Shown one piece after another: positions 17,953 to 43,901 of a stretch of DNA of 64,000 bases. The notes beneath the pieces were generated by a model. It worked only from the letters and a program-made list of their open reading frames with translations, did not search any database and had not been told where the DNA came from. The position numbers and the translations under genes were made by a program. The DNA lies in the NCBI GenBank assembly GCA_002339085.1, contig DDDX01000033.1:884-64883 (forward strand), given 5' to 3'. This DNA is from Cellvibrionales bacterium UBA1969. Lineage in GTDB: Bacteria; Pseudomonadota; Gammaproteobacteria; Pseudomonadales; UBA7434. Every line of letters begins with the position of its first letter. Position 1 is the stretch's first letter.

Positions 17953-17973
17953 AGAGGATAAAGAGAAGCTTTT

Positions 17974-19182: not shown

Positions 19183-19211
19183 TATTTGCCCTATCCGCTT
19201 TTTGCAAAGAT

Positions 19212-20131: not shown

Positions 20132-20266
20132 TTCGGCTTATCTGAGCGGCGTAAGTGAATTGAGTAGATCAACGAATAGAAAAGTTTTAGGCGCGCGTCC
20201 TGATTGCTTCTAGAATTTTTAATGCTATTTAATTGAGCTTTTGTAAACGCAATAAGAAGTTGATTT

Positions 20267-22030
20267 ATGTCTGAAAAGTTAGAATATATGGATTTTGAAG
20301 AGCCTTCAAAATCATTAAAAGACTATTTTAATATGCTTCGGCGGCGTAAGCGCGTATTGGCGATTACTTGGTTAATCGTGGTTATCATTTTTACTTTGCT
20401 AGCCTTTTTATGGCCGCCGACTTATCGCTCTCAAGCAATTATCTTAATAGAGCAACAAGATATCCCCGCTGAACTCGTGCAGACCACTATCACGAGTTAT
20501 GCCCAGCAGCGTATCGAAGAAATTAAGCAACGCATCATGACCATTAGCAATATTATGAATGTGGCGGAAGAGTTTGAATTATACAGCAAGCGTGAGTTTG
20601 ATCGGATGACGCGAACCGAGATTGCCGAAGAGTTTCGTGATGCCGTTTCCATAAAACCGATCAGTGCTGAAGTGGTTGATCCTCGCAGTGGACGGCCTTC
20701 GGAGGCAATTATCGCCTTTAGTTTGGCTTTTGATGGTGATTCTCCTAGTAAAGTGCAAAAAGTGACGAATGAAATCACCACGCTTTATTTAAATGAAAAC
20801 TTGAAAGAGAGAACGGAGCAAACGCAAAGTACGGCTGATTTCTTAACGGCAGAAACAGAAATGCTCTCTAGAGAGCTCGCTAATCTGGATCAAAAAATTG
20901 CTGACTTTAAAGAGCAAAATGAAGGAGCGCTACCAGAACAAAATCAATTTAATATCAGTATTGTTGATCGCACTGAGTTACAGATTAACGATTTAGATTT
21001 TCAATTAAAAGAGTTGAAAAAACGTAAAATAAGATTGGAGGGCGAGTTAACCCAAATCAGCCCTTCGGCACCTACTACCTTAGCTGATGGTAGTGTGATA
21101 TTGGGTGATGCTGATCGATTAAGAGCGGTGCAAAGTCAGTTGCGTCAGCTCAAGTCGATTTATCATGAAGACCATCCAGTGTTGCTCCGTTTAAAAAGAG
21201 AAGAGGCGACGTTGTTGCAAGTCTCAAGTAGTCATGATGCTTATAACGATACTGCAAAACAGCTACAGCAACAGCAAGATAAACTATCGGCCTTGCAGGC
21301 GAAATATACTCAAGATCATCCGCAAATCATTAAAGCTGAGCGAATAGTTAAGCAGTTAGCTGACTCTATTAAAGGGATGGAAAGAAGTTATGAGGCGCCC
21401 AGGGCAGATAACCCTGCTTATTTGTTCGTGAAGACACAATTAGACAGTACCAATGAAGATATTCGCGCTAATACTCAGAAAATTGAATCATTAAATGCAA
21501 AAATAGAGCGCTATGAAGGCTATCTGTCACGAGGGCCGCAGATCGAACAAGATTATCAAACGTTGGTACGTGATTACCAAAATACCTACATGAAATATCA
21601 AGAAATCCGTTCGAAAATGATGTCCGCCGAATTAGCGAAAAATTTAGAGTCAGAGCGAAAGGGTGAGCGTTTTACATTAATACAGCCCCCAGAATTACCT
21701 GTCGATCCGGTAAGCCCTAACCGCACAGCGTTAGTATTAATTGGTTTCATTATGGGGGTGGGTGTTGGCGTTGGTGTCGTTATTTTATTAGAGGCACTAA
21801 GTAATTGTGTCTATAGTCGTACCGACCTAGTTGGTCTGACTGGCAATGCTCCACTTGCGGTTATTAGTTATTTAGAGACTCAAGAAGAGCAGTCGAAGCA
21901 TAATAGGAAGCGGCTTTATATCGTTTTAGGCTTAATACTAGCAGGTATTGTTATTCTGCTGTTATTTCATTTTTTTATAAAACCTTTAGATGTGACTTGG
22001 TATATTTTATTGAGAAAGTTGGGCATGTAA
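20267..22030 (+). CDS. polysaccharide chain-length determinant (Wzz/GumC/EpsF-like PCP)
   Basis: The N-terminal Wzz motif region and a TM helix are followed by a long coiled-coil periplasmic domain. The proline-rich motif PPELPVDPVSPNR precedes the second TM helix. Confidence 0.85.
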   Translation: MSEKLEYMDFEEPSKSLKDYFNMLRRRKRVLAITWLIVVIIFTLLAFLWPPTYRSQAIILIEQQDIPAELVQTTITSYAQQRIEEIKQRIMTISNIMNVAEEFELYSKREFDRMTRTEIAEEFRDAVSIKPISAEVVDPRSGRPSEAIIAFSLAFDGDSPSKVQKVTNEITTLYLNENLKERTEQTQSTADFLTAETEMLSRELANLDQKIADFKEQNEGALPEQNQFNISIVDRTELQINDLDFQLKELKKRKIRLEGELTQISPSAPTTLADGSVILGDADRLRAVQSQLRQLKSIYHEDHPVLLRLKREEATLLQVSSSHDAYNDTAKQLQQQQDKLSALQAKYTQDHPQIIKAERIVKQLADSIKGMERSYEAPRADNPAYLFVKTQLDSTNEDIRANTQKIESLNAKIERYEGYLSRGPQIEQDYQTLVRDYQNTYMKYQEIRSKMMSAELAKNLESERKGERFTLIQPPELPVDPVSPNRTALVLIGFIMGVGVGVGVVILLEALSNCVYSRTDLVGLTGNAPLAVISYLETQEEQSKHNRKRLYIVLGLILAGIVILLLFHFFIKPLDVTWYILLRKLGM

Positions 22031-22074
22031 CAATTGTTCAGTCAGTTTAATGAATTTAATGGTGTGAGACCAAA

Positions 22075-22950
22075 ATGGAACGAATCCAAGAAGCGATAGA
22101 AAAAGCGAAGCGTGAGCGTCAGGGAGTTCAAGGCGTTGATGGTAAAACCGATGATCCTGTGCAAGATGACAAAGGCGAGCATGCATCTGAAACGGTTAGT
22201 AAGGATGGTGTTGTTAAGCAAGAAGATTTATTAGTTGACGCTCAACAAGAAAAACGCTCGGTTAGAGTCAAATACTCACAAACACGCAGTGTCAATATTG
22301 ATGCAGGAACCTTGAAGGATTTACGCATTGTTGCTGGTTTTACGCATGATAAGCGTTCAGAGCCTTATCGACAGTTACGCGGCCAAATATTAAATAAAAT
22401 GCGCGAGAATAGCTGGCAAACATTAGCGATCACTAGTCCTAATGCCGGTGCTGGCAGAACGCTAACAGCAATGAATCTTGCGATTAGTCTCTCTATGGAG
22501 GTGAATCAAACCGTATTATTGGTTGATATGGATTTACGTCAACCTAATGTTGCCACCTGTTTAGGAATTGACGACGTTGAATATGGCCTTGTGGATTATG
22601 TTAACAATGAACGGCCATTAGAGGATATTTTGATTCACCCAGGCTTTGAGCGATTAGTTTTATTACCGGGTACCGTTCAGGATAACGCCTCGTCTGAGAT
22701 CTTAACCTCACCTGAAATGAAAGTTGTGATAGAGGAGCTAATTGCCCGCTACCCTTCACGACTTATTATTTTTGATTTGCCTGCCGTGCTTAGTCATGAT
22801 GATGCCTTAGTATTTGCTCCTACGTGTGATGCGACATTGATGGTGGTTGAAGAGGGTGGCACTAATAAAGACGATCTAGAAAGGGCTTATCAGCTTCTTG
22901 AAGGCGCTAATATCATTGGTTCTGTATTGAATAAAGTCAGATATCCTTAA
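22075..22950 (+). CDS. BY-kinase-like P-loop protein (EpsG/CpsD family), with atypical Walker A
   Basis: ParA/MinD-like fold motifs: Walker A region ITSPNAGAGRT, Walker A' LLVDMDLRQP and Walker B LIIFDLPAV. The Walker-A Lys position is Arg (AGA codon at 22456-22458), and the C-terminus (…LNKVRYP) has no Tyr cluster. Confidence 0.78.
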   Translation: MERIQEAIEKAKRERQGVQGVDGKTDDPVQDDKGEHASETVSKDGVVKQEDLLVDAQQEKRSVRVKYSQTRSVNIDAGTLKDLRIVAGFTHDKRSEPYRQLRGQILNKMRENSWQTLAITSPNAGAGRTLTAMNLAISLSMEVNQTVLLVDMDLRQPNVATCLGIDDVEYGLVDYVNNERPLEDILIHPGFERLVLLPGTVQDNASSEILTSPEMKVVIEELIARYPSRLIIFDLPAVLSHDDALVFAPTCDATLMVVEEGGTNKDDLERAYQLLEGANIIGSVLNKVRYP

Positions 22951-22970
22951 CATTGGAGGTGCAATGAGTT

Positions 22971-23957
22971 ATGTATGAGCAGCACTTTTCCTTAAAAGCT
23001 AAGCCTTTTAGCCTCAGTCCCGATCCAGAATTTATACACTTTTCAGCCAAGCATAAAGTGGCCTACAGTCTGCTTGAATATGGCTTACATGAGCAAAGTG
23101 GTTTAACCGTTATTACCGGCGAAGTAGGCAGCGGGAAAACTACTTTAATTCGATATCTGCTTGCCGATATTGATCAAAGCCAGTTGGCAATTGGATTAAT
23201 TAATAATACTCATGCTTCTTTGGGTGATCTTACGCAATGGATCGCCTTGGCTTTTGATCTTCCGCATGAAGGCAAAGATAAAGTGACATTGTTTCGTGAT
23301 GTGCAAGAGTACTTAATCTCTGAATGGGCTAAAGGAAAACGTGCTGTGCTCATTGTTGACGAAGCGCAAAACATGGAAAAAGAAACGCTCGAAGAGTTGC
23401 GACTCTATACCAACATTAATGCCGATGGCGAGCAGTTTTTACAAATTATTTTAGTTGGTCAACCCGAGTTGAGGGATTTATTGCAGGCGCCTGAACTAGC
23501 TCAAATGGCTCAGCGTGTTTCCGTCGAATATCATATTGAGCCTTTGAGTTGGCAAGACACCGCTAATTATATTCGTCATCGTTTGGTTACCGCCAGTATT
23601 GAAGGTTTAGAAGACCAAGCCAATCACATTTTTGACTCTGTAGCGATGGCAGTTATTTTTTATTTTAGCGGAGGTGTGCCACGCTTAATTAATACCCTTT
23701 CTGATTTTGCTTTAGTCCATGCCTATGCGGTAGATCTTAAAGTTGTCAATTACGAGACGGCGCTTGAAGTGGTGCGCGGTCGAACTATTGGTGGTGTTAA
23801 TCGTTTCAAGAATAATGAGCAGCAGTTATCTTTGATTAGAGAGAAAGTGATTAATGCCGTGGGTATCGATTTAGAGACAGTGTTAGATCAAGAATGTGTA
23901 GACAATAATAATGAAAAAGAAGGTGGCCTGTTAAGCAGTGATGATCTAGTCCTATAA
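22971..23957 (+). CDS. ExeA/GspA-like AAA ATPase (PEP-CTERM/exosortase-locus ATPase type)
   Basis: Walker A GEVGSGKTTL, Walker B AVLIVDEAQN, LILVGQPEL and GGVPRLIN motifs, all typical of the ExeA-like family. Confidence 0.85.
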   Translation: MYEQHFSLKAKPFSLSPDPEFIHFSAKHKVAYSLLEYGLHEQSGLTVITGEVGSGKTTLIRYLLADIDQSQLAIGLINNTHASLGDLTQWIALAFDLPHEGKDKVTLFRDVQEYLISEWAKGKRAVLIVDEAQNMEKETLEELRLYTNINADGEQFLQIILVGQPELRDLLQAPELAQMAQRVSVEYHIEPLSWQDTANYIRHRLVTASIEGLEDQANHIFDSVAMAVIFYFSGGVPRLINTLSDFALVHAYAVDLKVVNYETALEVVRGRTIGGVNRFKNNEQQLSLIREKVINAVGIDLETVLDQECVDNNNEKEGGLLSSDDLVL

Positions 23958-24100
23958 ATTTGATTTAAGATTAATCAAGCGAAGTAGTTTTTATGTGGTA
24001 GTGATCGGCGCAGGGTATTAGCGCTCTATACCGATTGGGATTGGCGTAGAAAATTTGTTAATTGTTATAATACATATTATACAAAAAAGGAAAGTGTTGG

Positions 24101-25336
24101 ATGAAAAGTGCAAGCGAATACCAAAAAGTTTGTGTAATTGGTTTAGGTTATATTGGATTACCTACGGCTTCATTACTTGCCACAAAGGGCTTTGAAGTAG
24201 TCGGTGTTGATATCTCCCAAAAAGTCGTTAACACGATTAATCAAGGTGAAATTCATATTGTTGAACCTGATTTAGATATTTTGGTTAAATCAGCCGTTCA
24301 CTCTGGAAATCTATCGGCTAGCCTTGAGCCTTGTGAGGCCGATGTTTTTATTATCGCGGTACCTACACCATTTAAAGACGGCGGCCCTGATCATATATCA
24401 GGTAAAAAGCCTGACCTATCTTATATCGACTCGGCGACAAAAAAAATCTCACCCTATATTAAGGCAGGTGATTTGGTCATACTTGAATCTACAAGCCCTG
24501 TCGGTACAACGGATGAGGTGGTTGCTAAAATATTAAAGCAAGCAGGGCATGCCATTGGTGAGAATGTCTTTGTGTCGCATTGCCCTGAGAGAGTGTTGCC
24601 GGGCAGGATATTAATTGAATTAGTTGAGAATGATCGTGTTGTTGGTGGTATTAATGAGGAATCAACAAAAGTAACAGTTAATTTTTACGAACGCTTCGTT
24701 CGGGGGGCTGTTCTAGCTACAACAGCAAAAACCGCCGAAATGGTGAAGTTGACTGAAAATTCATCGCGTGATGTGCAGATTGCATTTGCGAATGAGCTCT
24801 CAATGATTTGTGAAACTGAAAATATTGATACATGGGAGGTGATTGAATTGGCCAATCGCCACCCTCGTGTCAATATATTGAATCCTGGCCCAGGAGTAGG
24901 TGGGCACTGTATTGCCGTTGACCCATGGTTTATTGTCGATCGTTCACCTGAAGTTTCTAAGTTAATTCGAACAGCTCGTGAAGTAAATGATGCTAAGCCT
25001 GAATGGGTAATAAATCGAGTTGTGCACTGTGCAAATAAATTCAAAGATCCAATTATTGCTTGTTTAGGATTGGCTTTTAAAGCTGATGTGGACGATTTAA
25101 GAGAATCGCCAGCCTACAATATTGCTAAAGAGATTCAAAGAAAAGAAATTGGAAGATTGATAGTTTGTGAGCCGAATCTAGATGATCATTGTGAATTTGA
25201 TCTCTACGAGCTTGATGATGTTATAGAACAGGCTGACATAATTCTTCTTTTAGTTGATCATAAAATTTTCAATCGATGCAAGGCGTCTGATTTAAGAGAG
25301 AAGTTAGTCATTGATACTAGGGGTATTATTAGATAA
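24101..25336 (+). CDS. wecC: UDP-N-acetyl-D-mannosamine dehydrogenase-like nucleotide-sugar dehydrogenase
   Basis: NAD-binding N-terminus VCVIGLGYIGLPTA. FIIAVPTP and ILESTSPVGTT motifs plus the catalytic GGHCI. wecB is present in the same locus. Confidence 0.78.
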   Translation: MKSASEYQKVCVIGLGYIGLPTASLLATKGFEVVGVDISQKVVNTINQGEIHIVEPDLDILVKSAVHSGNLSASLEPCEADVFIIAVPTPFKDGGPDHISGKKPDLSYIDSATKKISPYIKAGDLVILESTSPVGTTDEVVAKILKQAGHAIGENVFVSHCPERVLPGRILIELVENDRVVGGINEESTKVTVNFYERFVRGAVLATTAKTAEMVKLTENSSRDVQIAFANELSMICETENIDTWEVIELANRHPRVNILNPGPGVGGHCIAVDPWFIVDRSPEVSKLIRTAREVNDAKPEWVINRVVHCANKFKDPIIACLGLAFKADVDDLRESPAYNIAKEIQRKEIGRLIVCEPNLDDHCEFDLYELDDVIEQADIILLLVDHKIFNRCKASDLREKLVIDTRGIIR

Positions 25337-25381
25337 AGAGTACTTATACTTGACCAAGAGAAATGCATTTAGGGAAAAAAG

Positions 25382-26011
25382 ATGATAAATAATTTCTTAA
25401 TAGGTGTTTGTGGAGGATCTGCTTCCGGAAAAACAAGGTTTAGTCTGGAACTAAAGAGAAATCTTAATGAAGAGGTTACTTTAGTGTCACAAGACAACTA
25501 CTACTTTGATAGTTCGCATCTGAATAAAGAAGAAATAGCGAGAAAAAATTTTGATCAACCTCAAGCTATTGATTTAAATAGATTACATATAGACTTAGAG
25601 AAATTAAAAAAAAATCAGACAATTAATTTGCCAATTTATTGTTTTAATAGTCATTGTAGATTAAAAAAAACGAAAAAATTATTTCCAGCTCGGATAATAA
25701 TCGTTGAAGGTTTGTTTTTGTTCGAAAATGAAGTTATCAGAAATATCTTAGATTTGAAAATATTTATAGATGTTGATAGTGATGTTCGCCTTATGAGAAG
25801 AATAGAAAGGGATATTGAGTGTAGAGGCAGGCCATTAAGATCTGTGATTGATCAATATTCTAGAGATGTTAGGCCTATGTATAAGCAGTATATTGAACCA
25901 AAAAAAAAGTACGCCGATATTGTTCTGGAGGGAGAGTCTGAAGAAGACTTAGAAAAAAGCATTATCAATGTAAAAGATAAAATTTATACTCTAATTAAAG
26001 ATGGGAAATAA
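25382..26011 (+). CDS. uridine/cytidine kinase-family P-loop kinase
   Basis: GVCGGSASGKT P-loop, SQDNYYFD, NFDQPQAID, IIIVEGLF, and DSDVRLMRRIERDIECRGR...VIDQY...VRPMY. This is a full Udk-like motif series over 209 aa. Confidence 0.8.
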   Translation: MINNFLIGVCGGSASGKTRFSLELKRNLNEEVTLVSQDNYYFDSSHLNKEEIARKNFDQPQAIDLNRLHIDLEKLKKNQTINLPIYCFNSHCRLKKTKKLFPARIIIVEGLFLFENEVIRNILDLKIFIDVDSDVRLMRRIERDIECRGRPLRSVIDQYSRDVRPMYKQYIEPKKKYADIVLEGESEEDLEKSIINVKDKIYTLIKDGK

Positions 26012-27194
26012 AATGGAAACTATTGCTGAAAAGTTTTCCTATCCATTAGTGTTTGATAGGGTGGTTAACGACTTTATAACGATATGCAAATCTGTTTTCT
26101 GCTCAAAAAAATTAGGCATATTGTTAGTAGGAAGTTCAGCTAGAGGAGAGTTTTGTTGGAGCGGAAATATTGATGCGCCAGTATTTTACAGCGATGTTGA
26201 ATTTATTGTTGTTGTTGATAGATCGGATCTGAAATTTAAAAAAAAATTCCATGATGAAATAAATAAGTTAAATAACTCATTAAGTTTTGGCATAAGGTTT
26301 AAGGTGGATTATGTTATTAATACTTGGTCAGGGATAAAAAAAGCAGATAAAAAAATTTTTATTTTCGATAGTAAAAATAAAGGAATTGATCTTGGTAGCG
26401 AATCGGTTGTTTCGGTGCTGCCTGAGGTGACAATCAAAAACATAAATTTTAGCGAATTAAATGATATTTTATTGCATAGAATGAAGGCGGTTATTGCTGA
26501 TATACCAGAAAGTGTCTTTAGAGGAGAGGGGATATCTTCTGAACTATGCATGTCGATTTCAAAAAATGCACTTGATTCGACAACTTGGTTGTTTCCATAT
26601 GAAGCTGAACAATTATTATCTGGATTTAAAGAGCGCTTAGAAGTATGGGAGGCAAAAAAAAATCAGTTAAAGCTTTTTGATTTTTTTGATGAGTCTCAAT
26701 TATTATTTTTAATGAATTGTGATGCAATGAGAAGCCGAGTTGCTCCTTTGAGAAAGGATGTCGAGTTATTGAATCAATACGTTGAACTGTATGATGGAGC
26801 TTTAGCATATTGTAAAGCTAGGAACAATATCGGTATAGATGTAAATATCGATAGCCCAAATGCAAGTCGAAAAATTTTCTGGGAATATAATCCCCGAAGG
26901 CGTGTTAAGGAGGCGTATTTAATTCTGAGAAATTTTAAAAGTTTTGGATATATAAATATTTTTAGAAATATATTCTTTCCGAGAAAGGGAAGGCAAGCTA
27001 GTTTTTGTTTTTCGATGATTAAGGCTTTAGCCGCTTATATGAATGGCAACGCAGGTGTCTTCGTAAAAGAGGTTGATGCTTCCCATAAAAAATTAAAATT
27101 AATAATGAATGTACAAATCACGGGCGAGGACCCTGTCGAACAATGGCGAAGTTTAAGAAAATCGTACCTTTCAATAAATTCTGTGTTTATTTAA
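26001..27194 (+). CDS. Pol-beta-superfamily nucleotidyltransferase-domain protein with a long uncharacterised C-terminal region
   Basis: GSSARGE (nt 26130-26150) is followed by SDVEFIVVV (DVE at 26193-26201), which is the G-S-x3-G-[DE] ... D-x-[DE] NTase signature. The remaining ~300 aa carry no motif I can assign. An alternative start lies at ATG 26013. Confidence 0.55.
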   Translation: MGNKMETIAEKFSYPLVFDRVVNDFITICKSVFCSKKLGILLVGSSARGEFCWSGNIDAPVFYSDVEFIVVVDRSDLKFKKKFHDEINKLNNSLSFGIRFKVDYVINTWSGIKKADKKIFIFDSKNKGIDLGSESVVSVLPEVTIKNINFSELNDILLHRMKAVIADIPESVFRGEGISSELCMSISKNALDSTTWLFPYEAEQLLSGFKERLEVWEAKKNQLKLFDFFDESQLLFLMNCDAMRSRVAPLRKDVELLNQYVELYDGALAYCKARNNIGIDVNIDSPNASRKIFWEYNPRRRVKEAYLILRNFKSFGYINIFRNIFFPRKGRQASFCFSMIKALAAYMNGNAGVFVKEVDASHKKLKLIMNVQITGEDPVEQWRSLRKSYLSINSVFI

Positions 27195-27198
27195 GATT

Positions 27199-28539
27199 AT
27201 GTTTATAAGAGTAGATGAAGTAAATATTTTATTGAGTCTTGTTGCATCTGTAGTTTTATTTTCTGCAGGTTTTCTTTACGTAATGTCAAATAATGTTGCT
27301 GGTAGGTCATTTTTGCTCAAAGTTTTTTCTATTGCTTTTTTGCTTAGAGTACTGATGGCTTTTGCGCTATATTTTTCGCTAATCTCAATGGGTAGTGATG
27401 GTTATATTATTGAAGATGATCGTGTGTATAACTTTACAGCACTAGCTATAGATAAAGATATCGATCGAGGTAGGGTGGGTTACAAGCAGTACGAAAGTGG
27501 ATTTAAGAATATCGCTTATTTTAATTTTGGTGGCTTTATGTATCATCATTTTGGTTTTGATACTTTGACTATGCGGATAATAAATGCCTTTTTTGGGTCC
27601 GTAGTCGTGCTGCTTGTTTATTACATTATGCTACAAATATTCGATATGAGGATAGCGAGGATATCGGCTTTATTTATGGCTTTTTTGCCAAATTTAATAT
27701 TTTGGTCGGCGTCGCATGTCAAAGACCCTTTAGTTACATTGGTCACAATCTCATTGGTATACATCATGGTCTGTAAATTCAGGCGAGGCCTTAATCCTTT
27801 TGTTTTAGTTTTTTATATTTTTTTTATGTATTTGTTATGGCACTTGAGAAAAGACTATTGTTTTCCTTTGATTGGCGTGGCTATTTTGTGGGGCTTTATT
27901 AGATATACAGCGCTTGGTCGTTTTTTTAATAATCATAAACGCTCAAATTATTTGAAAATGGCTATTATGGTTGTCTTTGCTGTTCCGTTATTTTATACAT
28001 TGCTTTCTTCGCAAGCCGGCACTAACTTTATTGGAACTGTTGATAAGTTTAATCAGATGCAAGAACATTTATCTTCAGAAGGTGCAGCAGGTTTTACTCG
28101 TTATATGAGGATTTCAGGCCCTGGTGATATTTATAAATTACCAGCCGCAATGATATTCACCTCAATGGCACCGCTCCCGAATTTTGGGCCTACAACAGAT
28201 TGGAGGAAATATGGCCACAAAGTATATTCGTTTATTAACTTATCTTTGGTTCTTTTAATGCCACTGGTATTTTTTGGATTTCTTAAGTTTACAAATGTAA
28301 ATATGAAGTTCACAGATGAGCTTCTAGTCAAGTGGCTCCCTTTATTTACTTGGGCCTCAGTAAGTATTTTTTATATGGGTGTTTTAAGATATAAGTCTGG
28401 CCTTCTTCCATATTTTGTAATGTGGGCCTCAGTAGCTTGGGCATATCGGCATCAATACAGTCGGCATATATTATTTATGTATGGAGCAACTATGTCTGCT
28501 GTTTTAGTAATAATACCTGTGGCAACAATCTTCAGGTAA
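27199..28539 (+). CDS. polytopic inner-membrane protein, GT-C/PMT_2-like glycosyltransferase or atypical polymerase
   Basis: About 11-12 hydrophobic helices and an acidic first-loop motif, IIEDDRVY. The segment RIINAFFGSVVVLLVYYIMLQIF...FMAFLPNLIFWS resembles ArnT/PMT_2-type enzymes. The assignment is by pattern only. Confidence 0.45.
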   Translation: MFIRVDEVNILLSLVASVVLFSAGFLYVMSNNVAGRSFLLKVFSIAFLLRVLMAFALYFSLISMGSDGYIIEDDRVYNFTALAIDKDIDRGRVGYKQYESGFKNIAYFNFGGFMYHHFGFDTLTMRIINAFFGSVVVLLVYYIMLQIFDMRIARISALFMAFLPNLIFWSASHVKDPLVTLVTISLVYIMVCKFRRGLNPFVLVFYIFFMYLLWHLRKDYCFPLIGVAILWGFIRYTALGRFFNNHKRSNYLKMAIMVVFAVPLFYTLLSSQAGTNFIGTVDKFNQMQEHLSSEGAAGFTRYMRISGPGDIYKLPAAMIFTSMAPLPNFGPTTDWRKYGHKVYSFINLSLVLLMPLVFFGFLKFTNVNMKFTDELLVKWLPLFTWASVSIFYMGVLRYKSGLLPYFVMWASVAWAYRHQYSRHILFMYGATMSAVLVIIPVATIFR

Positions 28540-28559
28540 AAAAAGTGGAGAATGAATAG

Positions 28560-29666
28560 ATGAAGACACCCATATTAGTAATCTTTGTAGATGCTTTGCC
28601 TTATGACCGTGCCGTGAACATTGTAAATGCTTTAAAAGCAGATACACATTTAAAATCAATACCCGGGGTCGGTTATAGTATCAATGTAAAGGCAGAAATG
28701 TTTGCAGGGTTGAAGCCAGACGATGTCGGATATTTCTGTGAATGGAACTATAATCCTGATAATAGAAGCGTTTGGTGGGTAAATCTGGGAATACCAATTT
28801 TGGAAAGACTTAGTAGTTTTAGCCATTTTATCGATAGGGTGATCCATAAGCTAATCACTTTGGCGCGTGGTGAAAGAATATATGCCATACCATATCGTAT
28901 TTTACCAATGTTAAAATGTTCAGGGTTGACAGCTTATGAGCGTAATTTTGAAGCGCCAACGTTTTTATCAGATGGTAATTTCGAGCGTGTCCTCTACAGC
29001 GAGGAAGGTGTCAATGATAAAAAAGTTTTTGATAAGGCATTAGAAAAGTTACGCAAAGAAAAAAATAATAGATTGTTCGTTTCAACCGCAGAATTAGATG
29101 GTGTAATGCATCACTACGGCATGTCCTGCCAGAGGTATGAAGATCAAATATCATTAATTGAAGAGTCAACTGTCAATTTAATTCAGGAATTTCTCTCTAT
29201 ACATGGTGATCAGGCTAAGTATTTCCTCTTCTCTGATCATGGAATGGCGCCTGTTCTCGAGCCAGTTGATTTTGATATTTCACAGTATTGTGGTCAACCA
29301 GGCAATGAAAGTTATGTTTACGTAATTGATGCTACATTTTATAGGGTATGGATTAATAATGAAGAGCTAAGAACAAAAATTATCGATGCATTTGGCAGTG
29401 TAAATCATGTAGGCCATATTCTAACTGAAGAGGAGCGAATAAAATACGGTCTTGTGGATCGAAGGCATGGCGATATTATATTTTTGTTGAATGAGTCGAA
29501 ACAGTTTGCCCCTAACTTTTTTGGTAAGGAAATTAGTAAGGCAATGCACGGCTATGACCCTGAGCTAAAAAGTCAAGCGGGAGCATTTGTAAGTAATACT
29601 AATAGTGGATTTGGCGGTAACATTTCCTCAATGTCGATTCATGAGACTATTCGAGCTTTCCTGTGA
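28560..29666 (+). CDS. alkaline-phosphatase-superfamily enzyme (type I phosphodiesterase/NPP- or PglZ-like), cytoplasmic
   Basis: ILVIFVDALPYD (metal Asp), GVGYS (candidate nucleophile), ELDGVMHHYG (D..H) and FLFSDHGM (D-H). There is no signal peptide or TM helix. Confidence 0.65.
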   Translation: MKTPILVIFVDALPYDRAVNIVNALKADTHLKSIPGVGYSINVKAEMFAGLKPDDVGYFCEWNYNPDNRSVWWVNLGIPILERLSSFSHFIDRVIHKLITLARGERIYAIPYRILPMLKCSGLTAYERNFEAPTFLSDGNFERVLYSEEGVNDKKVFDKALEKLRKEKNNRLFVSTAELDGVMHHYGMSCQRYEDQISLIEESTVNLIQEFLSIHGDQAKYFLFSDHGMAPVLEPVDFDISQYCGQPGNESYVYVIDATFYRVWINNEELRTKIIDAFGSVNHVGHILTEEERIKYGLVDRRHGDIIFLLNESKQFAPNFFGKEISKAMHGYDPELKSQAGAFVSNTNSGFGGNISSMSIHETIRAFL

Positions 29667-31483
29667 TGCCCGTGATAAATAGAGGGTTAATAATAATATT
29701 CTTTTTTTATTCAGCTAATTTGAACGCTAGCATTTCGCTTTATCAGATTCCAGCTTTCTTTAATTTTCAAAAAGAAATGAATCTTAACGTTGATCTAAAA
29801 AAGCGAATTATTCTCAATCCCGTGATGATTCAATTGTCCGAATTTTCAGAAGCTGAGTACATTAAACAAATAAAAGAAGAAGTGCGAATTGAAGCTTTTA
29901 AGGGTGAGACTATTTATACAAGCTTTATCATAGAGGCCATAAATAAAGATCATAAAATATCCGCAAATCTTTTATTTGAAGAAGAATATTTTAAACCTGA
30001 TAACACTGAAATTAGCTTAGTGAGCAGCTGGTTTCAATCTGGTAGGAATACGACCATTTCAAAAGACAAGCAGTATCTAACACAAGAATTGTTAATTAAA
30101 GATGATTTAGTTGTAGACCTTTCAGATGGTTGGGTTAAAAATGAAGAGAAATGGTACTATCAACCCCCCAAAATTTCTCGATTAGAATCTATAAAGTCTT
30201 CTATTAAAAAGAATGACACCCGCCGCCTTCTAGTCGAGGTTAATGTCCCAGATAACATACCAGCAGATACATATACGATCAAATTATTGATTGAAAATAT
30301 TGATGGTGGAGAGCCATTGAAAAAAATAGCTTTGAAAATAGATGTTAAAGACATATCACTTGACTATAGTTTAAAGGACGCTTATGAGTTGTTTATTTAT
30401 ACAAAGTTGGGGCTAGATTTGAAGGTGGGTAGAGAGAATTCTTTTAATAATGGTCAACAGAATATTGGAGACGGTGAGTATCAGATAGAAAATTATTTCG
30501 CCCATGCTCATCAAATAGAAAAAAAAGGTTTCAATGGTGTTTTTATCATGGATTGGCGTCCTTCATATGTTGAGGATGCGTTGAATATTTTGAATGCTGT
30601 AGGGTTAGATCGAGCTATTATTTATGGGCGCCCTGTTGTAAAAGAAGGCGTTAAAGTTTTGACAGAAGATTTAGTCAAGACAATTAAAAGTAAAGGTTTC
30701 GAACCAATTTTTTACGGCTACGATGAGCCTGGCGGCAATGAGAAAGTTAAGCAGCAGCTAGCTTTAAATTCTCGGTTACATAATCTCGGAGCTAAATCCA
30801 TAAATGCTGTTTTTTGGAATGATATACCTAATATAGAGAAAAATATTATAAATGAAAATCAAGACTTTGATTATTTAACTATCAGTATGGGAAGTAACGG
30901 GCACAGAAAATTTTTTAAGTCTTTACCGATGTTAGGCTCTGAGAATGATATAAAATTTCTTGCTTATTGGCATCCACATGTAGAGAATCCCATGAGGAAT
31001 CGCTTGTTTATGGGGTTTTGGTTATGGGCTAGTGGGTTAGATGGAGTTTCTCCACATGCATATTATATTTTGCCTCATATAGCTCGTTATAATAAAGAAA
31101 GAGAAGATAAGTCGCGGGGTCCGTTATCCCCGTACAATGATTTCTCTATGTGGGACAATCCAAAGGGGATTTTTCGTCAACACTCTACTGTTTACCCTAA
31201 TGAAAAAGGTTTTATTTCAACCTTACAATGGGAGGCAATATCTGAAGGGGTAACAGATTTAGTTATGATAAAGCAATTAGAAAAACTAATTGAGAATGAT
31301 AGGTCGAAACTTAGAGCCCAAAATGGCTTAGAGTTACTACAAGAAATTCGTTCTAATGTTTTGACAGTCAAATCATCTTCATTTACTGATAGGCAAATCA
31401 AAAAATTCAACATTTATATGAATGATTGGAGAGATCGAATTAGAAAACTTATCCTGGAATATAACAAAGAATTAGCTTACTAG
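29663..31483 (+). CDS. hypothetical exported or membrane-anchored protein (606 aa), possibly glycoside-hydrolase-like
   Basis: N-terminal hydrophobic segment LIIIFFFYSANLNA. The start overlaps the upstream stop. The middle region (GFNGVFIMDWRPSYVEDALNILNAVGLDRAIIYG) is compatible with a TIM-barrel-like fold, and the architecture is reminiscent of DUF4091/GH123-type proteins. None of this is verified. Confidence 0.5.
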   Translation: MMPVINRGLIIIFFFYSANLNASISLYQIPAFFNFQKEMNLNVDLKKRIILNPVMIQLSEFSEAEYIKQIKEEVRIEAFKGETIYTSFIIEAINKDHKISANLLFEEEYFKPDNTEISLVSSWFQSGRNTTISKDKQYLTQELLIKDDLVVDLSDGWVKNEEKWYYQPPKISRLESIKSSIKKNDTRRLLVEVNVPDNIPADTYTIKLLIENIDGGEPLKKIALKIDVKDISLDYSLKDAYELFIYTKLGLDLKVGRENSFNNGQQNIGDGEYQIENYFAHAHQIEKKGFNGVFIMDWRPSYVEDALNILNAVGLDRAIIYGRPVVKEGVKVLTEDLVKTIKSKGFEPIFYGYDEPGGNEKVKQQLALNSRLHNLGAKSINAVFWNDIPNIEKNIINENQDFDYLTISMGSNGHRKFFKSLPMLGSENDIKFLAYWHPHVENPMRNRLFMGFWLWASGLDGVSPHAYYILPHIARYNKEREDKSRGPLSPYNDFSMWDNPKGIFRQHSTVYPNEKGFISTLQWEAISEGVTDLVMIKQLEKLIENDRSKLRAQNGLELLQEIRSNVLTVKSSSFTDRQIKKFNIYMNDWRDRIRKLILEYNKELAY

Positions 31484-31494
31484 AAGATATTATA

Positions 31495-32679
31495 ATGGAT
31501 CAACACAAAAAAAATATTTTATTTGTTGAGTATTGTCCCGACCTGAAAGGTGGCGGTGCTCAGCGTGTTTTTTTAGATCTAATGAAGTCAATAAATAAGG
31601 AAAAATATAATATTTTTGCTGCCTTTCCCAGCATTAATAATAGCCAGCTGGCTGCTGAGATTCCAAAAGATGCCATTAGATTTCATTATGATTCGAAGTC
31701 ACCTCAAAAAAATAAAAATAAAATTATGTCTTACTTGATTTTCATTATCTTTATACCTATTAATACAATTATTGGGACTTTTCGCATAAAAAGATATGAT
31801 ATTGAAGTTGTTTATGTTCATTCAATAATCAGTGGCTTTCATTTCTCAATAGCAAAATATTTTGTTAATTTTAAGTTGATTTATCATGAGCATAATCTAG
31901 TTTCACAAAGACCGGCAATGCACCTTTGGCGCTCCATGTTTGATTTTGTGAATTATCAGTCTGATATGGTCATTGCAAACAGCCATGCAACTGCACTTTC
32001 CCTTAAAGAATACGGCAGTGAGGAGAGTAAAATTGCCGTGGTGCATAATGGAATACTTATAGAAGATTTTGATGATAAATTATCAGAGTCTAGAGGAATG
32101 GCTAGATTGGGGTTTAAAAAGGACACTACACCAATAATTGTTGGTATGGTTGGTCATTTTAGACCTTGGAAAGGTCAGCATTACTTTGCAGAGTCTATGA
32201 AGAATGCTAAAAAGTATAATAATGACATTCACTATGTAGTTGTTGGGGGATTTCATGATCAACAATATTATCAGGATGTATGCGAGTATATTGAGCTTGA
32301 AGGTATTTCGGATAATGTAACAATCACAGGCCATCAAGAAAATGTATCTGAGTTAATGGCATGTATGGATATCGTTGTTGTGCCTTCAGTACCAGAGCCA
32401 TTTGGCTTGGTCGTTCTGGAGGCTATGATGATGAAAAAGCCTGTTATTGCATTCAATGTTGGTGGCCCATCTGAAATAATCCAACATGGAGAAACCGGAA
32501 TTTTGGTATCAGAAATTAAAAGTGAAGCACTTGGCGATGAGATTGGAATGCTTTCAAATGACCTGCCCATGCGTGAGAGAATGGGTTTGAAAGGGAGAGA
32601 GTTATTGAGTTCTGACTTCACTTGTAGAGCCCAAGCAAAAAATATTGAGAGTGTTCTTGAGACTCTCTTTATTCAATGA
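31495..32679 (+). CDS. glycosyltransferase family 4 (GT-B, retaining)
   Basis: C-terminal E-x7-E region VPSVPEPFGLVVLEAMMMKKPVIAFNVGGPSEIIQHGETGILV. Confidence 0.85.
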   Translation: MDQHKKNILFVEYCPDLKGGGAQRVFLDLMKSINKEKYNIFAAFPSINNSQLAAEIPKDAIRFHYDSKSPQKNKNKIMSYLIFIIFIPINTIIGTFRIKRYDIEVVYVHSIISGFHFSIAKYFVNFKLIYHEHNLVSQRPAMHLWRSMFDFVNYQSDMVIANSHATALSLKEYGSEESKIAVVHNGILIEDFDDKLSESRGMARLGFKKDTTPIIVGMVGHFRPWKGQHYFAESMKNAKKYNNDIHYVVVGGFHDQQYYQDVCEYIELEGISDNVTITGHQENVSELMACMDIVVVPSVPEPFGLVVLEAMMMKKPVIAFNVGGPSEIIQHGETGILVSEIKSEALGDEIGMLSNDLPMRERMGLKGRELLSSDFTCRAQAKNIESVLETLFIQ

Positions 32680-32701
32680 ATTAATTTTAAAGATAATAAT
32701 T

Positions 32702-33883
32702 ATGAAAAAAAATGTTCATTGTATTCATTACATACCTAAACTCTGTTTAGAAAATGGCGGTGTAGTTCGTTTCATTATTGATATTTGTCAAGTCCTTTCT
32801 GATAGAGGATTGAAAGTCACATTAATTACACAAGATGCTAAGGATGCGCCAGCCAAATGGTCTAATAAAGACTCTAGTCCGAGTATTTTAGAGTTAAAGC
32901 AAGCTCATATTCCTGGAGGATTTATTAATTTTAGGAATCTTAAAAAAGTAAAGCAGTTACTCGATAGTGATGAAAGGAAGGTCATTAATTTTCATATACC
33001 TTGGGTATTAAGTAATTATCAGCTTTCAATGTTAGCTAATAAATTAAAGATACCATATATTGTTACTCCTCATGGGTCATTAGACTCATGGTCAATGAGT
33101 CAGAAAAAACTTAAAAAGAATATTTTTTGGATATTGTTTGGGAAAAAACATTATGAAAATGCTTTTAGTATTCACTATACAGCTGAAAGCGAGCGTGAGC
33201 AGGGAGAGAAATATATAGTAAAAAATAATTTCCACATTATTCCCTGCCTATTTGATGTTTCAGAATTTGAAACCATTCCAGACACCAATTTAGCAAAAAA
33301 CAAATATATCCAAATCAGCAGTAAATTTCCAAATCTTTTATTTTTAAGTAGGATTCATCCGAAAAAAGGTATCGATACACTCATCAAAGCTGCCAATATT
33401 CTCATAAATAAAGGTGTTTATTGTAATATCTTGATAGCTGGTCCAGATGATTTGACAGCTAAAGGCTATAGAAAAAAACTAGAAGAATTAATTGAGGTTA
33501 GTAATCTTTCAGATCGTGTGCACTTTATTGGGATGGTTAAAGGTCAAGAAAAGTTATCCTTATATAATTGTGCAGATGTTTTTGTTTTGCCAACTCACCA
33601 GGAAAACTTTGGGTTTGTGTTAGTTGAAGCGATGGCTTGTGCAACTCCAGTTATAACCTCATTTGGCGTAGATATATGGAGAGAGATTGGGAGAGGCGGC
33701 GCATTGATAACGGATAATACACCTGAAGCTTTTGCCGAAAAAATAGAATTTTTATTATCAGATACAGATACTCTTGTGAATAGAGGAAAGATATCGCGCG
33801 AATGGGTGTTCAGCTCTTTCGATGCAGTGAGACTGGCGGATGAATATTGCGCAATGTATGAGCAATTTCAATCTCTAAACTAG
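32702..33883 (+). CDS. glycosyltransferase family 4 (GT-B)
   Basis: LPTHQENFGFVLVEAMACATPVITS motif. I moved the start to the ATG at 32702, because the track extension overlaps the upstream gene. Confidence 0.85.
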   Translation: MKKNVHCIHYIPKLCLENGGVVRFIIDICQVLSDRGLKVTLITQDAKDAPAKWSNKDSSPSILELKQAHIPGGFINFRNLKKVKQLLDSDERKVINFHIPWVLSNYQLSMLANKLKIPYIVTPHGSLDSWSMSQKKLKKNIFWILFGKKHYENAFSIHYTAESEREQGEKYIVKNNFHIIPCLFDVSEFETIPDTNLAKNKYIQISSKFPNLLFLSRIHPKKGIDTLIKAANILINKGVYCNILIAGPDDLTAKGYRKKLEELIEVSNLSDRVHFIGMVKGQEKLSLYNCADVFVLPTHQENFGFVLVEAMACATPVITSFGVDIWREIGRGGALITDNTPEAFAEKIEFLLSDTDTLVNRGKISREWVFSSFDAVRLADEYCAMYEQFQSLN

Positions 33884-35334
33884 TGATTAAAATGCCTAAT
33901 GAGATAGTTAAAACATCTATTGCATCTTTCTTGCAAAAAATATTTCTTAATTTGTCATCTTTTATTATAACTATTGTTTTATCTAGAATGTTAACTGTTT
34001 CAGAATTTGGCATTTTCTCTCTAGTGAATGCTATTATATTTTTTCTAATAATATTTTTTAGTATTGGGATTCAGGCCTCTATGGCTCGCTTTTTATCTTT
34101 ATCTGATGATCGAGAATATCGGCATAGTGTATTAGCTAAAGGCCTAGGTGTTTTGTTGCCTTGGGTTGTTTTATGCACGGGAATTTATTTGATTTTCTAT
34201 GCCCCTATTATTGACTTTATTTTTCCAGAAGGGGAATTAAAGAATTTTACTCTTATTATATATGCAATCGCTTTAATTGAAGTTGTTCGGTTATTTATTG
34301 AAAAAGCTAGTCACGGCATAAGTAGATTGGGAATTGCCGCAGAGCAGAGTGCTTATACTTCGTTATTACTTGTATTATTATTAGTTTCTGCAGCATATAT
34401 ATATTCTTCCGCTGAGTCGGTTCTATATGCAAAAATTATTGCATTAGCTCTTCCAATTCCTTTTGCATTAACAAAGCTAATATTAGAATTTAAGAAATCA
34501 TTAAATGCTGACGCACCTCATGAACCATCAACTTTGACTATTGTAAGTTATGGGATTCCTCTATCCTTAATATTCTTGGCAGATTATGGTTTTTTGCAAT
34601 TGCCTTTAATTTTTTTAGGAAGTTATCTAGATCCAAGTGCTGTAGGCCTATACTCTATAAGCATTCTAACTTATGTAAGATTGCTTATCGTTCCTCGTGC
34701 TATTGGTAACGGATTAGCTCCTCATATGGCACGAATGAACCATGATCAGAATTGGTTCTCCCTTCTTGAGAAAGGGGTATTATTCGCGCTTATTTTTTCT
34801 ATACCGATAGTTATTATCGGCTGTACGGAAGGTGGTGAGTTGTTGGCACTTATCTTTGGCGAAAAATATAGAGAAGCAAAAGATATTTTTTTATTGCTAT
34901 CTTTATTCTATTTGATGTCATCTTTATTAGGCGTCATAAATCCTATATTAGATTTTTCGGGTCGGGCTAAAACAAGAGCTTTTGGCGTATCAGTCGGATC
35001 TGTTATAAATATTTTATTAAATATATTATGGATTCCAAAATATGGTATTTATGGTGCCGCAATAGCTACTTTAGTCGGTTACTTTATTTTTTTTATTATT
35101 GTAATTGTTAATCTCAAATCTCAGGCAATTAGTGCAATCATTTTGAGCAGACCTATTCATAAGTTGCTATTCTTATGCTCTATGTTATTGGTGATATTTT
35201 TTATTTTTAGGGCTATATTTCCCTCTATTTCATTTTTAATATTATTGATAATTTTGTCTTTAATTTACCCAATATTATTAATTTGCTCAGGAATAGTTAG
35301 TAAATCAGATTTTAGGACTATTTTTAAAAATTGA
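33883..35334 (+). CDS. wzx: Wzx-type oligosaccharide flippase (MOP/polysaccharide biosynthesis protein family)
   Basis: 483 aa with ~12-14 TM helices. The N-terminus IASFLQKIFLNLSSFIITIVLSRMLTVSEFGIF is typical of Wzx/RfbX. An alternative start lies at ATG 33892. Confidence 0.78.
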   Translation: MIKMPNEIVKTSIASFLQKIFLNLSSFIITIVLSRMLTVSEFGIFSLVNAIIFFLIIFFSIGIQASMARFLSLSDDREYRHSVLAKGLGVLLPWVVLCTGIYLIFYAPIIDFIFPEGELKNFTLIIYAIALIEVVRLFIEKASHGISRLGIAAEQSAYTSLLLVLLLVSAAYIYSSAESVLYAKIIALALPIPFALTKLILEFKKSLNADAPHEPSTLTIVSYGIPLSLIFLADYGFLQLPLIFLGSYLDPSAVGLYSISILTYVRLLIVPRAIGNGLAPHMARMNHDQNWFSLLEKGVLFALIFSIPIVIIGCTEGGELLALIFGEKYREAKDIFLLLSLFYLMSSLLGVINPILDFSGRAKTRAFGVSVGSVINILLNILWIPKYGIYGAAIATLVGYFIFFIIVIVNLKSQAISAIILSRPIHKLLFLCSMLLVIFFIFRAIFPSISFLILLIILSLIYPILLICSGIVSKSDFRTIFKN

Positions 35335-35465
35335 CTAAATTTTATGTTCTTTGGGGTTTAGCTTAATGTGATTTTCGTTTTCAGAGTTGGCTTTGTTAAT
35401 GCCAATCTCAGATCTATTATTCAAGGCTTAATGATATTTAAAACAATTTTTGGTGGGATTTATTA

Positions 35466-37574: not shown

Positions 37575-37583
37575 ATCAAAGGG

Positions 37584-39278: not shown

Positions 39279-39280
39279 TT

Positions 39281-40501: not shown

Positions 40502-40522
40502 TCTACACTTAATTATTGTAAT

Positions 40523-40548
40523 GGAGATGCGATGTCTCCCTAATTTTC
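40523..40548 (+). terminator. possible weak terminator/attenuator between the WbuB-like gene and xrtA
   Basis: GGAGA-N7-TCTCC stem followed by CTAATTTTCG. The stem is only 5 bp. Confidence 0.25.
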
Positions 40549-40599
40549 GTTCAAAAAGCAACCAATTTTTCTTGATTGCCCTAGATTTATAAATGAGTA

Positions 40600-42171: not shown

Positions 42172-42242
42172 TTTGGTGTTGGTATTAATGAAAATAATAA
42201 ATATGATGCTTGGCGATAAGTCAAAAATAGGAAAACTGTAAA

Positions 42243-43871: not shown

Positions 43872-43901
43872 TTATGTCATTATTATAAAGGTGTTATTCC
43901 T

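Follow-up and report, generated by a model that had tools for sequence, protein, structure and literature searches.

In bacteria, loci for surface polysaccharides tend to be interpreted in terms of enzyme families that are already known. Nucleotidyltransferases (NTases) of the AadA/ANT type, which put a nucleoside monophosphate (NMP) on a sugar or cyclitol hydroxyl, are known for the chemistry that we propose below for one gene of such a locus, and characterised NPPs are typically secreted or ecto-enzymes. The defining features of GH123-type enzymes are a beta-sandwich, a (beta/alpha)8 barrel, a DUF4091 region and a catalytic DE motif that is found in 94% of sequences, and these enzymes combine the motif with substrate-assisted catalysis (PMC11087588). 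Here we describe five consecutive genes, g1-g5 (positions 25382-31483), in an exopolysaccharide (EPS) locus on a stretch of 64,000 nt from Cellvibrionales bacterium UBA1969 (contig DDDX01000033.1), hereafter the window. Two of these genes, g2 and g4, form a conserved pair with intact active sites, and one partner has no Pfam or NCBIfam model.

The five genes make up the 5' part of a variable, low-GC, serotype-like central region of a Wzx-dependent XrtA/PEP-CTERM locus, and they are a recurrent functional set. Its universal core is the cytoplasmic pair g2 and g4, which is found across several glycan assembly types and in unrelated taxa. A variable tailoring cassette within an EPS locus is a known kind of arrangement. 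The g2/g4 pair and its coupling to a uridine/cytidine kinase gene (Udk; g1 in the window) have not been described previously, and we found no description of this module in the literature on nucleotide-handling enzymes in EPS, capsule and O-antigen loci, on exosortase systems or on glycan nucleotidylation. Rather than a defence system, the module probably represents a route for modifying surface sugars that has yet to be described.

Recurrence of the gene set and its g2-g4 core

Synteny was surveyed with hidden Markov models (HMMs) built from orthologues of the module genes, and the related loci from metagenome contigs and metagenome-assembled genomes (MAGs) that were compared with the window are labelled L001-L029. 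The gene set recurs in nine distinct lineages with 37-68% protein identity and 32-58% GC, two of them with a shuffled order. The order g1-g2-g3-g4-g5 is kept in L001-7 and L009-15. Six further lineages have the window's order (L004; L005-7; L009/10/15; L011/12; L013/14; and L008, which is without g1 and whose contig ends inside g4). The rearranged loci read Udk-g4-g2-g3-Wzx-pyruvyltransferase-GT4-GT4-g5 (L029) and GT4-GT4-g5-g4-g2-g3-Wzx, without Udk (L028), and they hold the two most distant relatives of g5. Because the set survives this rearrangement, its members are likely to be functionally linked. The initial annotation of this DNA had singled out the five genes as a unit outside the canonical XrtA/PEP-CTERM set, and their recurrence across nine lineages bears this out; the same co-occurrence, with its two rearrangements, shows that the set is not fortuitous.

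The boundaries of the inherited unit lie beyond the five genes. When the window is compared with L009, the frame genes (PEP-CTERM ATPase, wecC, ADH/GFO and the third GT4) are 71-83% identical, whereas the genes from g1 to wzx are only 44-67% identical, and we therefore take the inherited unit to be the eight-gene central region at 25382-35334. The GC content is 0.32-0.36 over 25-36 kb as compared with 0.40-0.48 on both flanks, and this dip coincides with the segment from g1 to wzx. Low GC combined with higher divergence is typical of a region that is exchanged horizontally and determines the serotype.

The association of g2 with g4 extends much further than that of the other genes. At g2 identities of 18-30%, g2-like and g4-like genes are still adjacent, often with overlapping stop and start codons (L018, L022-24, L025 and L026/27). 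Every g2-like gene with downstream sequence is adjoined by a member of the g4 subfamily (198-543 bits against the g4 HMM, and 198-233 bits in the distant branches). The surroundings of the pair vary widely. It follows DegT, PIG-L, Wza and Wzz/GNVR genes and precedes Wzx in L022-24; it lies in L025 after a WecA-like gene, epimerases and a GT4, and before a GT4, Wzy_C, another GT4, methyltransferases and then Wzx; and in L026/27 it comes after an ABC transporter, two NeuB genes, a CMP-sugar synthetase and a GT2, with more glycosyltransferases (GTs) downstream. A Udk gene and a 248-aa open reading frame (ORF) precede it in L018. The g2/g4 pair recurs in glycan loci of organisms with 25-66% GC and different assembly pathways. 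Udk joins the pair in two clades. In L016 and L018-21, loci of 35-66% GC, the Udk gene directly precedes the g2-like gene, and in L029 it directly precedes g4. The g3 and g5 genes are confined to the window's clade. All of the approximately 18 related loci are polysaccharide loci of Wzx/Wzy or ABC type, and none was seen outside glycan loci.

Some of these loci have further features near the module. An 85-aa ORF without a Pfam match (8564-8821) replaces Udk on the 5' side of g2 in L008, where FnlA/B/C-like genes and a divergent exosortase are found nearby. A clear Sulfotransfer_1/_3 gene adjoins the module in L028 (335-1363, minus strand), and the 248-aa ORF between Udk and the NTase-like gene in L018 (616-1362) and L019 (1089-1835) has a faint Sulfotransfer_1 match (E = 0.027) and a 'GYPRSANSF' motif. 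Sulfotransferase genes beside the module in two unrelated lineages may indicate that the polymers made there are sulfated. A link of the module itself to sulfation was rejected, as no component relates to 3'-phosphoadenosine-5'-phosphosulfate (PAPS) chemistry. Four methyltransferase genes (15902-20756) stand beside the g2/g4 pair, Wzy_C and GT4 genes of L025, and they may matter if a methylated sugar or phosphate is what the pathway makes.

Predicted enzymes of the set

The g2 protein is assigned, from its signature residues and a structural model, to an unnamed family of Pol-beta-type NTases in which an N-terminal NTase domain is followed by a helical domain of ~250 aa. The Pol-beta call had been made before from the N-terminal signature (GSSARGE ... 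DVE), and it is upheld by the motif G40-S41..R44-G45-E46..S60-D61-x-E63..D99, whose residues are invariant in 10 orthologues. A broad family alignment of 60 sequences, which reaches down to 18% identity, retains the motif residues without exception (G40 and D61 among them) or at ≥90% (S41, E63 and D99 among them). In an exhaustive profile search, 364 of 1.84e9 representatives reached E <= 1e-3, and 241 reached <= 1e-10. Their length is mostly 400-450 aa, with matches over the full length, and none of the 364 is named. The family has no Pfam or NCBIfam model and no name in any source checked. The window's g2 reaches 14.8 bits with the NTase Pfam model, below the cut-off of 21, and matches among the 60 members are weak for both Polbeta (11 members, best E = 0.0087) and NTP_transf_2 (5 members, best E = 0.0064).

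The AlphaFold2 (AF2) model of g2 (pLDDT 81, pTM 0.79) consists of the NTase domain and a large helical domain. Its best Foldseek match in the PDB is AadA, an ANT(3'')(9) enzyme (6fzb_B), which has a probability of 0.98 but is marginal by its E value (0.044) and TM-scores (0.31/0.43). The best natural-protein match of the family profile in the PDB is streptomycin 3''-adenylyltransferase (6sxj, E = 0.0027), over 54 residues only. Structures of the cGAS type rank far below AadA (probability 0.07 vs 0.98). A LicD/fukutin-like identity, which had been suggested by analogy, was rejected: none of the 60 members matches the LicD model at E <= 1, only the generic Polbeta and NTP_transf_2 models are hit, and the closest structure belongs to the ANT-type O-nucleotidyltransferases. 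A Foldseek comparison of the g2 model with viral structures found nothing significant, and tblastn searches with g2 and g4 found no match in a plasmid collection. Metagenomes were scanned for g2 with a 15-sequence subfamily alignment, and a further homology search with the broad family alignment gave at least 8 proteins and added two distant gene contexts. A scan of species-representative genomes with the g2 alignment gave one match, in an uncultured gammaproteobacterial MAG, and this count is a lower bound because the pattern-based scan probably misses divergent members.

The constant partner, g4, is predicted to be a cytoplasmic NPP-type phosphodiesterase of the alkaline-phosphatase (AP) superfamily. 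It scores 30.3 bits with Phosphodiest (PF01663, cut-off 23), and this model matches 8 of 8 family members (best E = 1e-14). The residues D11, S40, N42, D180, H184, D226, H227 and H330 are invariant, even in the distant partners from L022 and L024, and the D..H, DHG and HGY motifs align with those of Xanthomonas NPP and ENPP6. A g4 profile has Xanthomonas NPP as its best match in the PDB (2gsn, E = 2.6e-9), with ENPP4-7 also among the nearest solved relatives. Single-sequence PDB searches gave only marginal matches for g2, g4 and g5; with profiles, the results improved for g4 and g5. The g4 protein begins directly at its first strand (MKTPILVIFVD, in which D11 is a metal ligand) and has no predicted hydrophobic segment; a cytoplasmic location follows from this lack of a signal peptide or membrane anchor. 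The protein had been annotated as a leaderless AP-superfamily enzyme that is 'NPP- or PglZ-like'. The lack of a leader, the complete motif set and the NPP assignment all hold, whereas PglZ was rejected together with sulfatase, as neither model matches any of the 8 members (PglZ at E <= 1).

The product of g1 is, judging by family scores and motifs, a canonical uridine/cytidine kinase, as it had been called at the outset. It scores 143.2 bits with PRK (PF00485, cut-off 22) and 228.1 bits with the uridine kinase model NF004018 (PRK05480, cut-off 180), and is slightly below the cut-off of TIGR00235 (209.9 bits, cut-off 220.3). Its best PDB match is the Thermus thermophilus uridine kinase (E = 3e-44). 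The complete motif series, consisting of the P-loop, the Asp of D-x-Y-Y, N-[YF]-D-x-P, P-x-Y-x-F-x-x-H-x-R and the Arg-rich lid, is invariant in nine module-linked Udks when they are aligned with the T. thermophilus enzyme. These proteins also share an invariant His where the 3asy sequence has Tyr and the 3w8r sequence has His, a position that we take to control the acceptance of uridine. A sugar kinase is ruled out by the intact base- and ribose-recognition motifs. The Udk gene is translationally coupled to g2, or to g4 in L029.

The g5 protein is predicted to be exported, with a signal-peptide-like N-terminus, and its structural model has the fold of a GH123/DUF4091-type beta-N-acetylhexosaminidase. 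In Foldseek comparisons of the AF2 model (pLDDT 82, pTM 0.87) with the PDB, the top 22 matches are all beta-N-acetylgalactosaminidases or hexosaminidases of the GH123 type (E 1e-19 to 1e-16, probability 1.0, TM-scores 0.49-0.64, ~600-690 columns). A g5 family profile matches 8k2j (E = 1.1e-4) in an alignment that takes in a stretch of the DUF4091 region. The N-terminal model Glyco_hydro_123_N_2 matches 10 of 21 family members (best E = 4.7e-5); the window's g5 has 15.3 bits with it, against a cut-off of 27. This 606-aa protein had been thought to carry no assignable motif, a view that the modelled fold, the profile and the N-terminal Pfam model overturn. The adjacent residues D353-E354 ('GYDEPGG') are invariant in 21 members and lie just past the fourth barrel strand of the model; their equivalence with the catalytic DE motif is proposed from this position in the model. 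By analogy with the periplasmic glycanases of other EPS systems, g5 probably trims or releases a polymer that contains N-acetylhexosamine (HexNAc) or N-acetylmannosaminuronic acid (ManNAcA).

The g3 protein has about 10 hydropathy-predicted transmembrane segments and large loops at residues 58-126, 271-343 and 363-423, the first of which contains the invariant motif G65-x-D67-G68..D73-D74-R75-x-Y77. PMT_2 (PF13231) matches 6 of 7 orthologues (best E = 2e-7), with full matches recorded in L011, L028 and L029; the window's g3 scores 17.7 bits, below the cut-off of 26.1. These features agree with its earlier description as a polytopic, GT-C-like protein with an acidic first loop. Wzy_C (PF04932) matches neither g3 nor its orthologues. 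Scans of 19469-47449 with Pfam and NCBIfam found no Wzy_C-type polymerase, although the locus contains Wzx, and the near-clade relatives of the locus are likewise without one. In L025, Wzy_C is present and the g3 family is absent. A polymerase role for g3 is plausible because every other polytopic protein of this Wzx-dependent locus, which has no Wzy, can be assigned, and the chance that this GT-C-like membrane protein is the polymerase or a periplasmic transferase of the locus seems to us evenly balanced.

A possible tailoring mechanism and its alternatives

The explanation that we prefer for the observations as a whole, and that we place slightly below an even chance, is a recurrent glycan-tailoring set with g2 and g4 as its core and Udk as a frequent member, which would act by nucleotidylation, cleavage and salvage. 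Decoration of the polymer with a nucleotide-derived or phosphodiester-linked group had been one of two hypotheses in the initial annotation; it fits the context of all ~18 related loci, every one a polysaccharide locus, but its comparison with LicD/fukutin does not stand. The specific mechanism of O-nucleotidylation, nucleoside-side cleavage and salvage by Udk is more tentative, and we regard it as possible but doubtful. With UTP or CTP as donor, the g2 enzyme would attach UMP or CMP to a hydroxyl group on the lipid-linked repeat unit or on a sugar precursor. If g4 then attacks the nucleotidyl phosphodiester on its nucleoside side, free uridine or cytidine would be released, and the phosphate would either be left on the sugar as a phosphomonoester or move on to another hydroxyl, which would create a phosphodiester or a cyclic phosphate. 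The freed nucleoside would be re-phosphorylated by g1. We argue for nucleoside release because the reactions of GTs, of polyprenyl-phosphate N-acetylhexosamine-1-phosphate transferases (PNPTs) and of classical NPPs yield UDP or UMP, and none of them needs a nucleoside kinase. Such a kinase would make sense here, we infer, only if free nucleoside is produced or if the supply of pyrimidine nucleoside triphosphates is limiting. The wider proposal that the g2/g4 pair is an unrecognised, widespread and kinase-free route for placing phosphate on bacterial surface glycans, with the nucleoside as leaving group and Udk recycling it, is somewhat less likely again.

Several observations weigh against this explanation. 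All carriers are uncultured and come from metagenomes and MAGs. Classical NPP regiochemistry releases NMP and not the nucleoside, in which case g4 would merely undo the work of g2 and Udk would be left unexplained. Given the marginal match to AadA, the acceptor class of g2 is a guess. Udk is dispensable, being absent from L008, L028 and L022-27 (none within 10 kb in L022-27). Five of 8 g4 members also match Metalloenzyme (best E = 4.3e-6), the model for phosphoglycerate mutase (iPGM) and phosphopentomutase, so that a mutase activity is possible. For g3, a search of its sequence profile against the PDB found no relative. No member of the g5 family (21 sequences) matches the GH123 catalytic or DUF4091 Pfam models, and an invariant Gln of g5 (Q521, within residues 518-525, 31217-31240) appears to replace the Arg that solved enzymes have in the 'vYPg.dGpl.siR.E' stretch. 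This Arg is probably the structural Arg among the nine universally conserved residues of PMC11087588.

The same genes could instead supply a precursor in the manner of manB-manC, with g4 as a phospho-sugar mutase or nucleoside diphosphate (NDP)-sugar pyrophosphatase and g2 as a sugar-1-phosphate nucleotidylyltransferase, so that an unusual NDP-sugar is made or re-tagged for the adjacent GT and Udk boosts UTP or CTP. Pairs of a mutase and an NTase are standard in glycan loci, a GT gene lies immediately 3' of the pair in L025 and L026 and is found after g5 in the window's clade, and the independence of g2/g4 from the assembly pathway fits a cytoplasmic precursor role. The Metalloenzyme matches of g4 are compatible with this too, since the AP superfamily includes phosphopentomutase and iPGM. 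We consider precursor supply unlikely, however, as g4 is nearer to NPPs than to mutases by its Phosphodiest matches (8 of 8), its top PDB matches and its NPP-like metal-ligand spacing, and we know of no Pol-beta NTase that makes NDP-sugars. The intact base and ribose recognition residues of g1 speak against a sugar kinase in such a pathway, and a boost in supply leaves the tight translational coupling of Udk to this particular pair unexplained. Less probable still is a GlnD-like switch of polymer output, in which g2 reversibly uridylylates or adenylylates the lipid carrier or an assembly protein, such as the co-polymerase/kinase, flippase, PNPT or a GT, and g4 removes the NMP. Classical NPP chemistry, which yields NMP and a free hydroxyl, is the exact reverse of the NTase reaction; the pair directly follows the Wzz/GNVR co-polymerase gene in L022-24, and no Wzb-type phosphatase was seen in the window's locus. 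Against such a switch, the pair belongs to the variable serotype-like block and co-diverges with GTs and Wzx, not with the conserved export machinery. Its presence in both Wzy-type and ABC-type systems leaves no common protein target, g2 and g4 contain no sensor or regulatory domain, and Udk would have no role.

The other hypothesis of the initial annotation placed a module for nucleotide-based signalling or for defence, such as against phages, within the glycan island. Taken together, an NTase, a phosphodiesterase and a nucleoside kinase do superficially resemble a system for the synthesis and degradation of a second messenger, ENPP-type enzymes degrade cyclic dinucleotides in animals, and the region is low in GC and variable. 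A scan of the five proteins against PADLOC-DB nevertheless found no match better than E = 0.012, no effector, sensor or receptor domain is present, and the cGAS-type structures fall far behind AadA in the g2 comparison. The genes occur only in glycan loci (~18 of ~18), where they share the orientation of GT and Wzx genes, lie in close succession with them and diverge together with the neighbouring GTs and the flippase; the plasmid and viral comparisons were also negative. A defence or signalling function is accordingly very improbable. We give even less credence to a fortuitous adjacency of five unrelated genes, a housekeeping udk among them, in a recombination-prone glycan island. It would account for the absence of Udk from some loci and for the finding that module Udks of different clades are no more alike than each is to the housekeeping Udk of Thermus. 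It is opposed by the persistence of the set in nine lineages at 37-68% identity and 32-58% GC through two rearrangements, by a g2-g4 adjacency that holds to ~20% g2 identity and by the overlapping or near-abutting stop and start codons.

If the chemistry proposed above is right, the set would represent a new glycan-tailoring logic, phosphotransfer with a nucleoside leaving group, and it would account for the biosynthesis of some marine exopolysaccharides that carry phosphate. Two enzyme families would be added to glycan annotation, and there would be a reason for a nucleoside kinase in an EPS operon. The conservative readings still provide a GH123-like glycanase in a biosynthetic operon and a GT-C-like candidate polymerase in XrtA loci that have no Wzy. 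Testing will require gene synthesis because every carrier is uncultured.

The EPS locus and comparison with known systems

Contigs with a sequence identical to that of the window occur in Tara Oceans and other marine metagenomes. On the evidence of domain matches, the genes around g1-g5 form an XrtA/PEP-CTERM exopolysaccharide locus that has EpsH and EpsI, a PEP-CTERM-type ATPase, Wza and a polysaccharide co-polymerase (PCP)/kinase. The gene order begins with Wza, PCP, a Tyr-kinase-like ATPase, the PEP-CTERM ATPase and a wecC-like dehydrogenase, and then g1-g5. These are followed by two GT4 genes, Wzx, an ADH/GFO oxidoreductase, a heparinase II/III-like protein and a third GT4, and the last part consists of XrtA (EpsH+EpsI), a WecA-like PNPT, a TPR protein and wecB. 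Exosortase_EpsH scores 237.7 bits and DUF3485 192.3 bits; Poly_export, Wzz/GNVR and AAA_31 are also matched, and TIGR03015 (pepcterm_ATPase) gives E = 1.8e-88 and 296.5 bits, below its strict cut-off of 324.5. Housekeeping genes (proA, nadD, rlmH, mrdA, rodA and others) occupy the DNA from 47610 onward, past the EPS locus. An Rfam scan of both strands of 1-64000 found no family at gathering score and no riboswitch upstream of the EPS locus.

Coordinates of the EPS locus, the module genes and their immediate neighbours in the window
Feature	Position	Strand	Length or basis
XrtA/PEP-CTERM-type EPS locus, complete	19469..47449	+	Pfam, NCBIfam matches
wecC-like UDP-sugar 6-dehydrogenase	24101..25336	+	UDPG_MGDP_dh N, central and C domains
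g1	25382-26011	+	209 aa
g2	26001/26013-27194	+	397/393 aa
g3	27199-28539	+	446 aa
g4	28560-29666	+	368 aa
g5	29663/29666-31483	+	606/605 aa
Two GT4 glycosyltransferases	31495..33883	+	Pfam Glycos_transf_1/Glyco_transf_4
Wzx-type flippase, end of low-GC variable block	33883..35334	+	Polysacc_synt, Polysacc_synt_3; ~13 transmembrane segments

The five plus-strand ORFs, their junctions and their motifs can be read directly from the sequence as first annotated. The stop codon of g1 is at 26009-26011. A g2 start at ATG 26001 would overlap g1 by 11 nt, and 1 nt past the stop there is a second ATG in the same frame, at 26013; public calls of the identical g2 protein use the latter start (393 aa). The gaps between g2 and g3 and between g3 and g4 are 4 nt and 20 nt. 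The TGA of g4 (29664-29666) lies inside the GTGATG at 29663-29668, and public calls of the identical g5 protein start at the ATG at 29666 (605 aa), with the GTG at 29663 as the alternative. The description of a tightly coupled five-gene module is correct as to the junctions themselves, but the tight spacing is not limited to five genes: gaps range from -1 to 45 nt all the way from wecC (24101) to wzx (35334). There are no plus-strand terminator-like sites between 24414 and 34759. A promoter and terminator scan of the window gave counts equal to those of shuffled controls and for this reason provides no positive evidence for operon boundaries.

The wecC-like gene is the usual upstream neighbour of the module and is directly 5' of the Udk gene in L004, L005 (a fragment), L009 and L011. 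Because its protein is 73-83% identical between loci, it is assigned to the conserved frame and not to the variable block. The GT4 pair adjoins the module in L004, L005, L009, L011, L028 and L029 and is 57-64% identical, which is the divergence level of g1-g5 as opposed to the 71-83% of the frame genes. For the second GT4, the mechanical ORF (32645-33883) has TTG 32645 as its first codon and shares 35 nt with the first GT4, whereas public gene calls of 393 aa imply a start near 32702; the start was taken as 32690 in this analysis. The Wzx-type flippase is 62% identical to its L009 orthologue.

A 702-aa ADH_zinc_N + GFO_IDH_MocA fusion, a heparinase II/III-like protein and a GT4 are encoded side by side at 35466-40501. 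This trio is kept in L009/L010, its first two genes are also found in L011, whose contig stops there, and it appears to belong to the constant frame of this type of XrtA locus. The WecA-like PNPT (42243-43871) has 542 aa and about 16 hydropathy-predicted transmembrane segments, of which ~5-6 (residues ~360-540) lie past the Glycos_transf_4 domain (74-225) and form an unexplained C-terminal membrane extension.

The proteins of the set resemble several described systems in part. By role, g3 is comparable with Wzy, as it occupies the usual wzy position beside wzx in the variable central region of a locus that has no Wzy. It is polytopic with an acidic motif in an early large loop, as are GT-C enzymes of the PMT_2/ArnT type, but the window's locus differs from classical GT-C systems in having no polyprenyl-phosphate-sugar synthase (an ArnC/GtrB-type GT2) to feed it. 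The model of g5 has a beta-sandwich, a (beta/alpha)8 barrel and C-terminal helices in the same order as the GH123/DUF4091 enzymes (NgaP, CpNga123, BvGH123, NgaDssm and Groups 1-4 of PMC11087588), and it shares with them a full-length fold match and an aligned 'vYP..G....WE' stretch, together with an invariant adjacent D-E pair after barrel strand 4 that may correspond to theirs. It is only 10-15% identical to these enzymes, and it is encoded in a biosynthetic EPS operon and not in a catabolic context.

Like LicD/fukutin, g2 has the NTase fold, is encoded in a glycan locus and would make a phosphodiester-linked substituent; unlike LicD/fukutin, it has the classical G-S triphosphate-binding motif of NTases that use nucleoside triphosphates, and the window's locus has no LicA/LicC/TarI-type genes for CDP-alcohol synthesis. 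The mannose-6-phosphate pathway, with its GlcNAc-1-phosphotransferase and uncovering enzyme, offers a purely mechanistic analogy: a nucleotide-derived phosphodiester is formed on a sugar hydroxyl and a second enzyme removes the cover. The protein families are unrelated, and the cover proposed here is a nucleoside and not GlcNAc. The g4 protein has the full two-metal site and Ser/Thr nucleophile of NPP/ENPP enzymes with NPP-like spacing. It differs from them in being cytoplasmic, in using Ser rather than Thr as nucleophile, in aligning with known NPPs only over its C-terminal two-thirds and in forming a dedicated subfamily that is genetically tied to the g2 family. In AadA/ANT enzymes as in g2, a Pol-beta NTase domain at the N-terminus carries the G-S...D-x-[DE]...D motif and is followed by a helical substrate domain. 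The match is marginal, with ~11% identity, and g2 stands outside that family; it is ~130 aa longer and has a far larger helical domain with invariant motifs of its own (NxLDxTTWL, RRR and PRKGxQ). AadA is a protein of resistance cassettes, whereas g2 is encoded in glycan loci and always together with its NPP partner.

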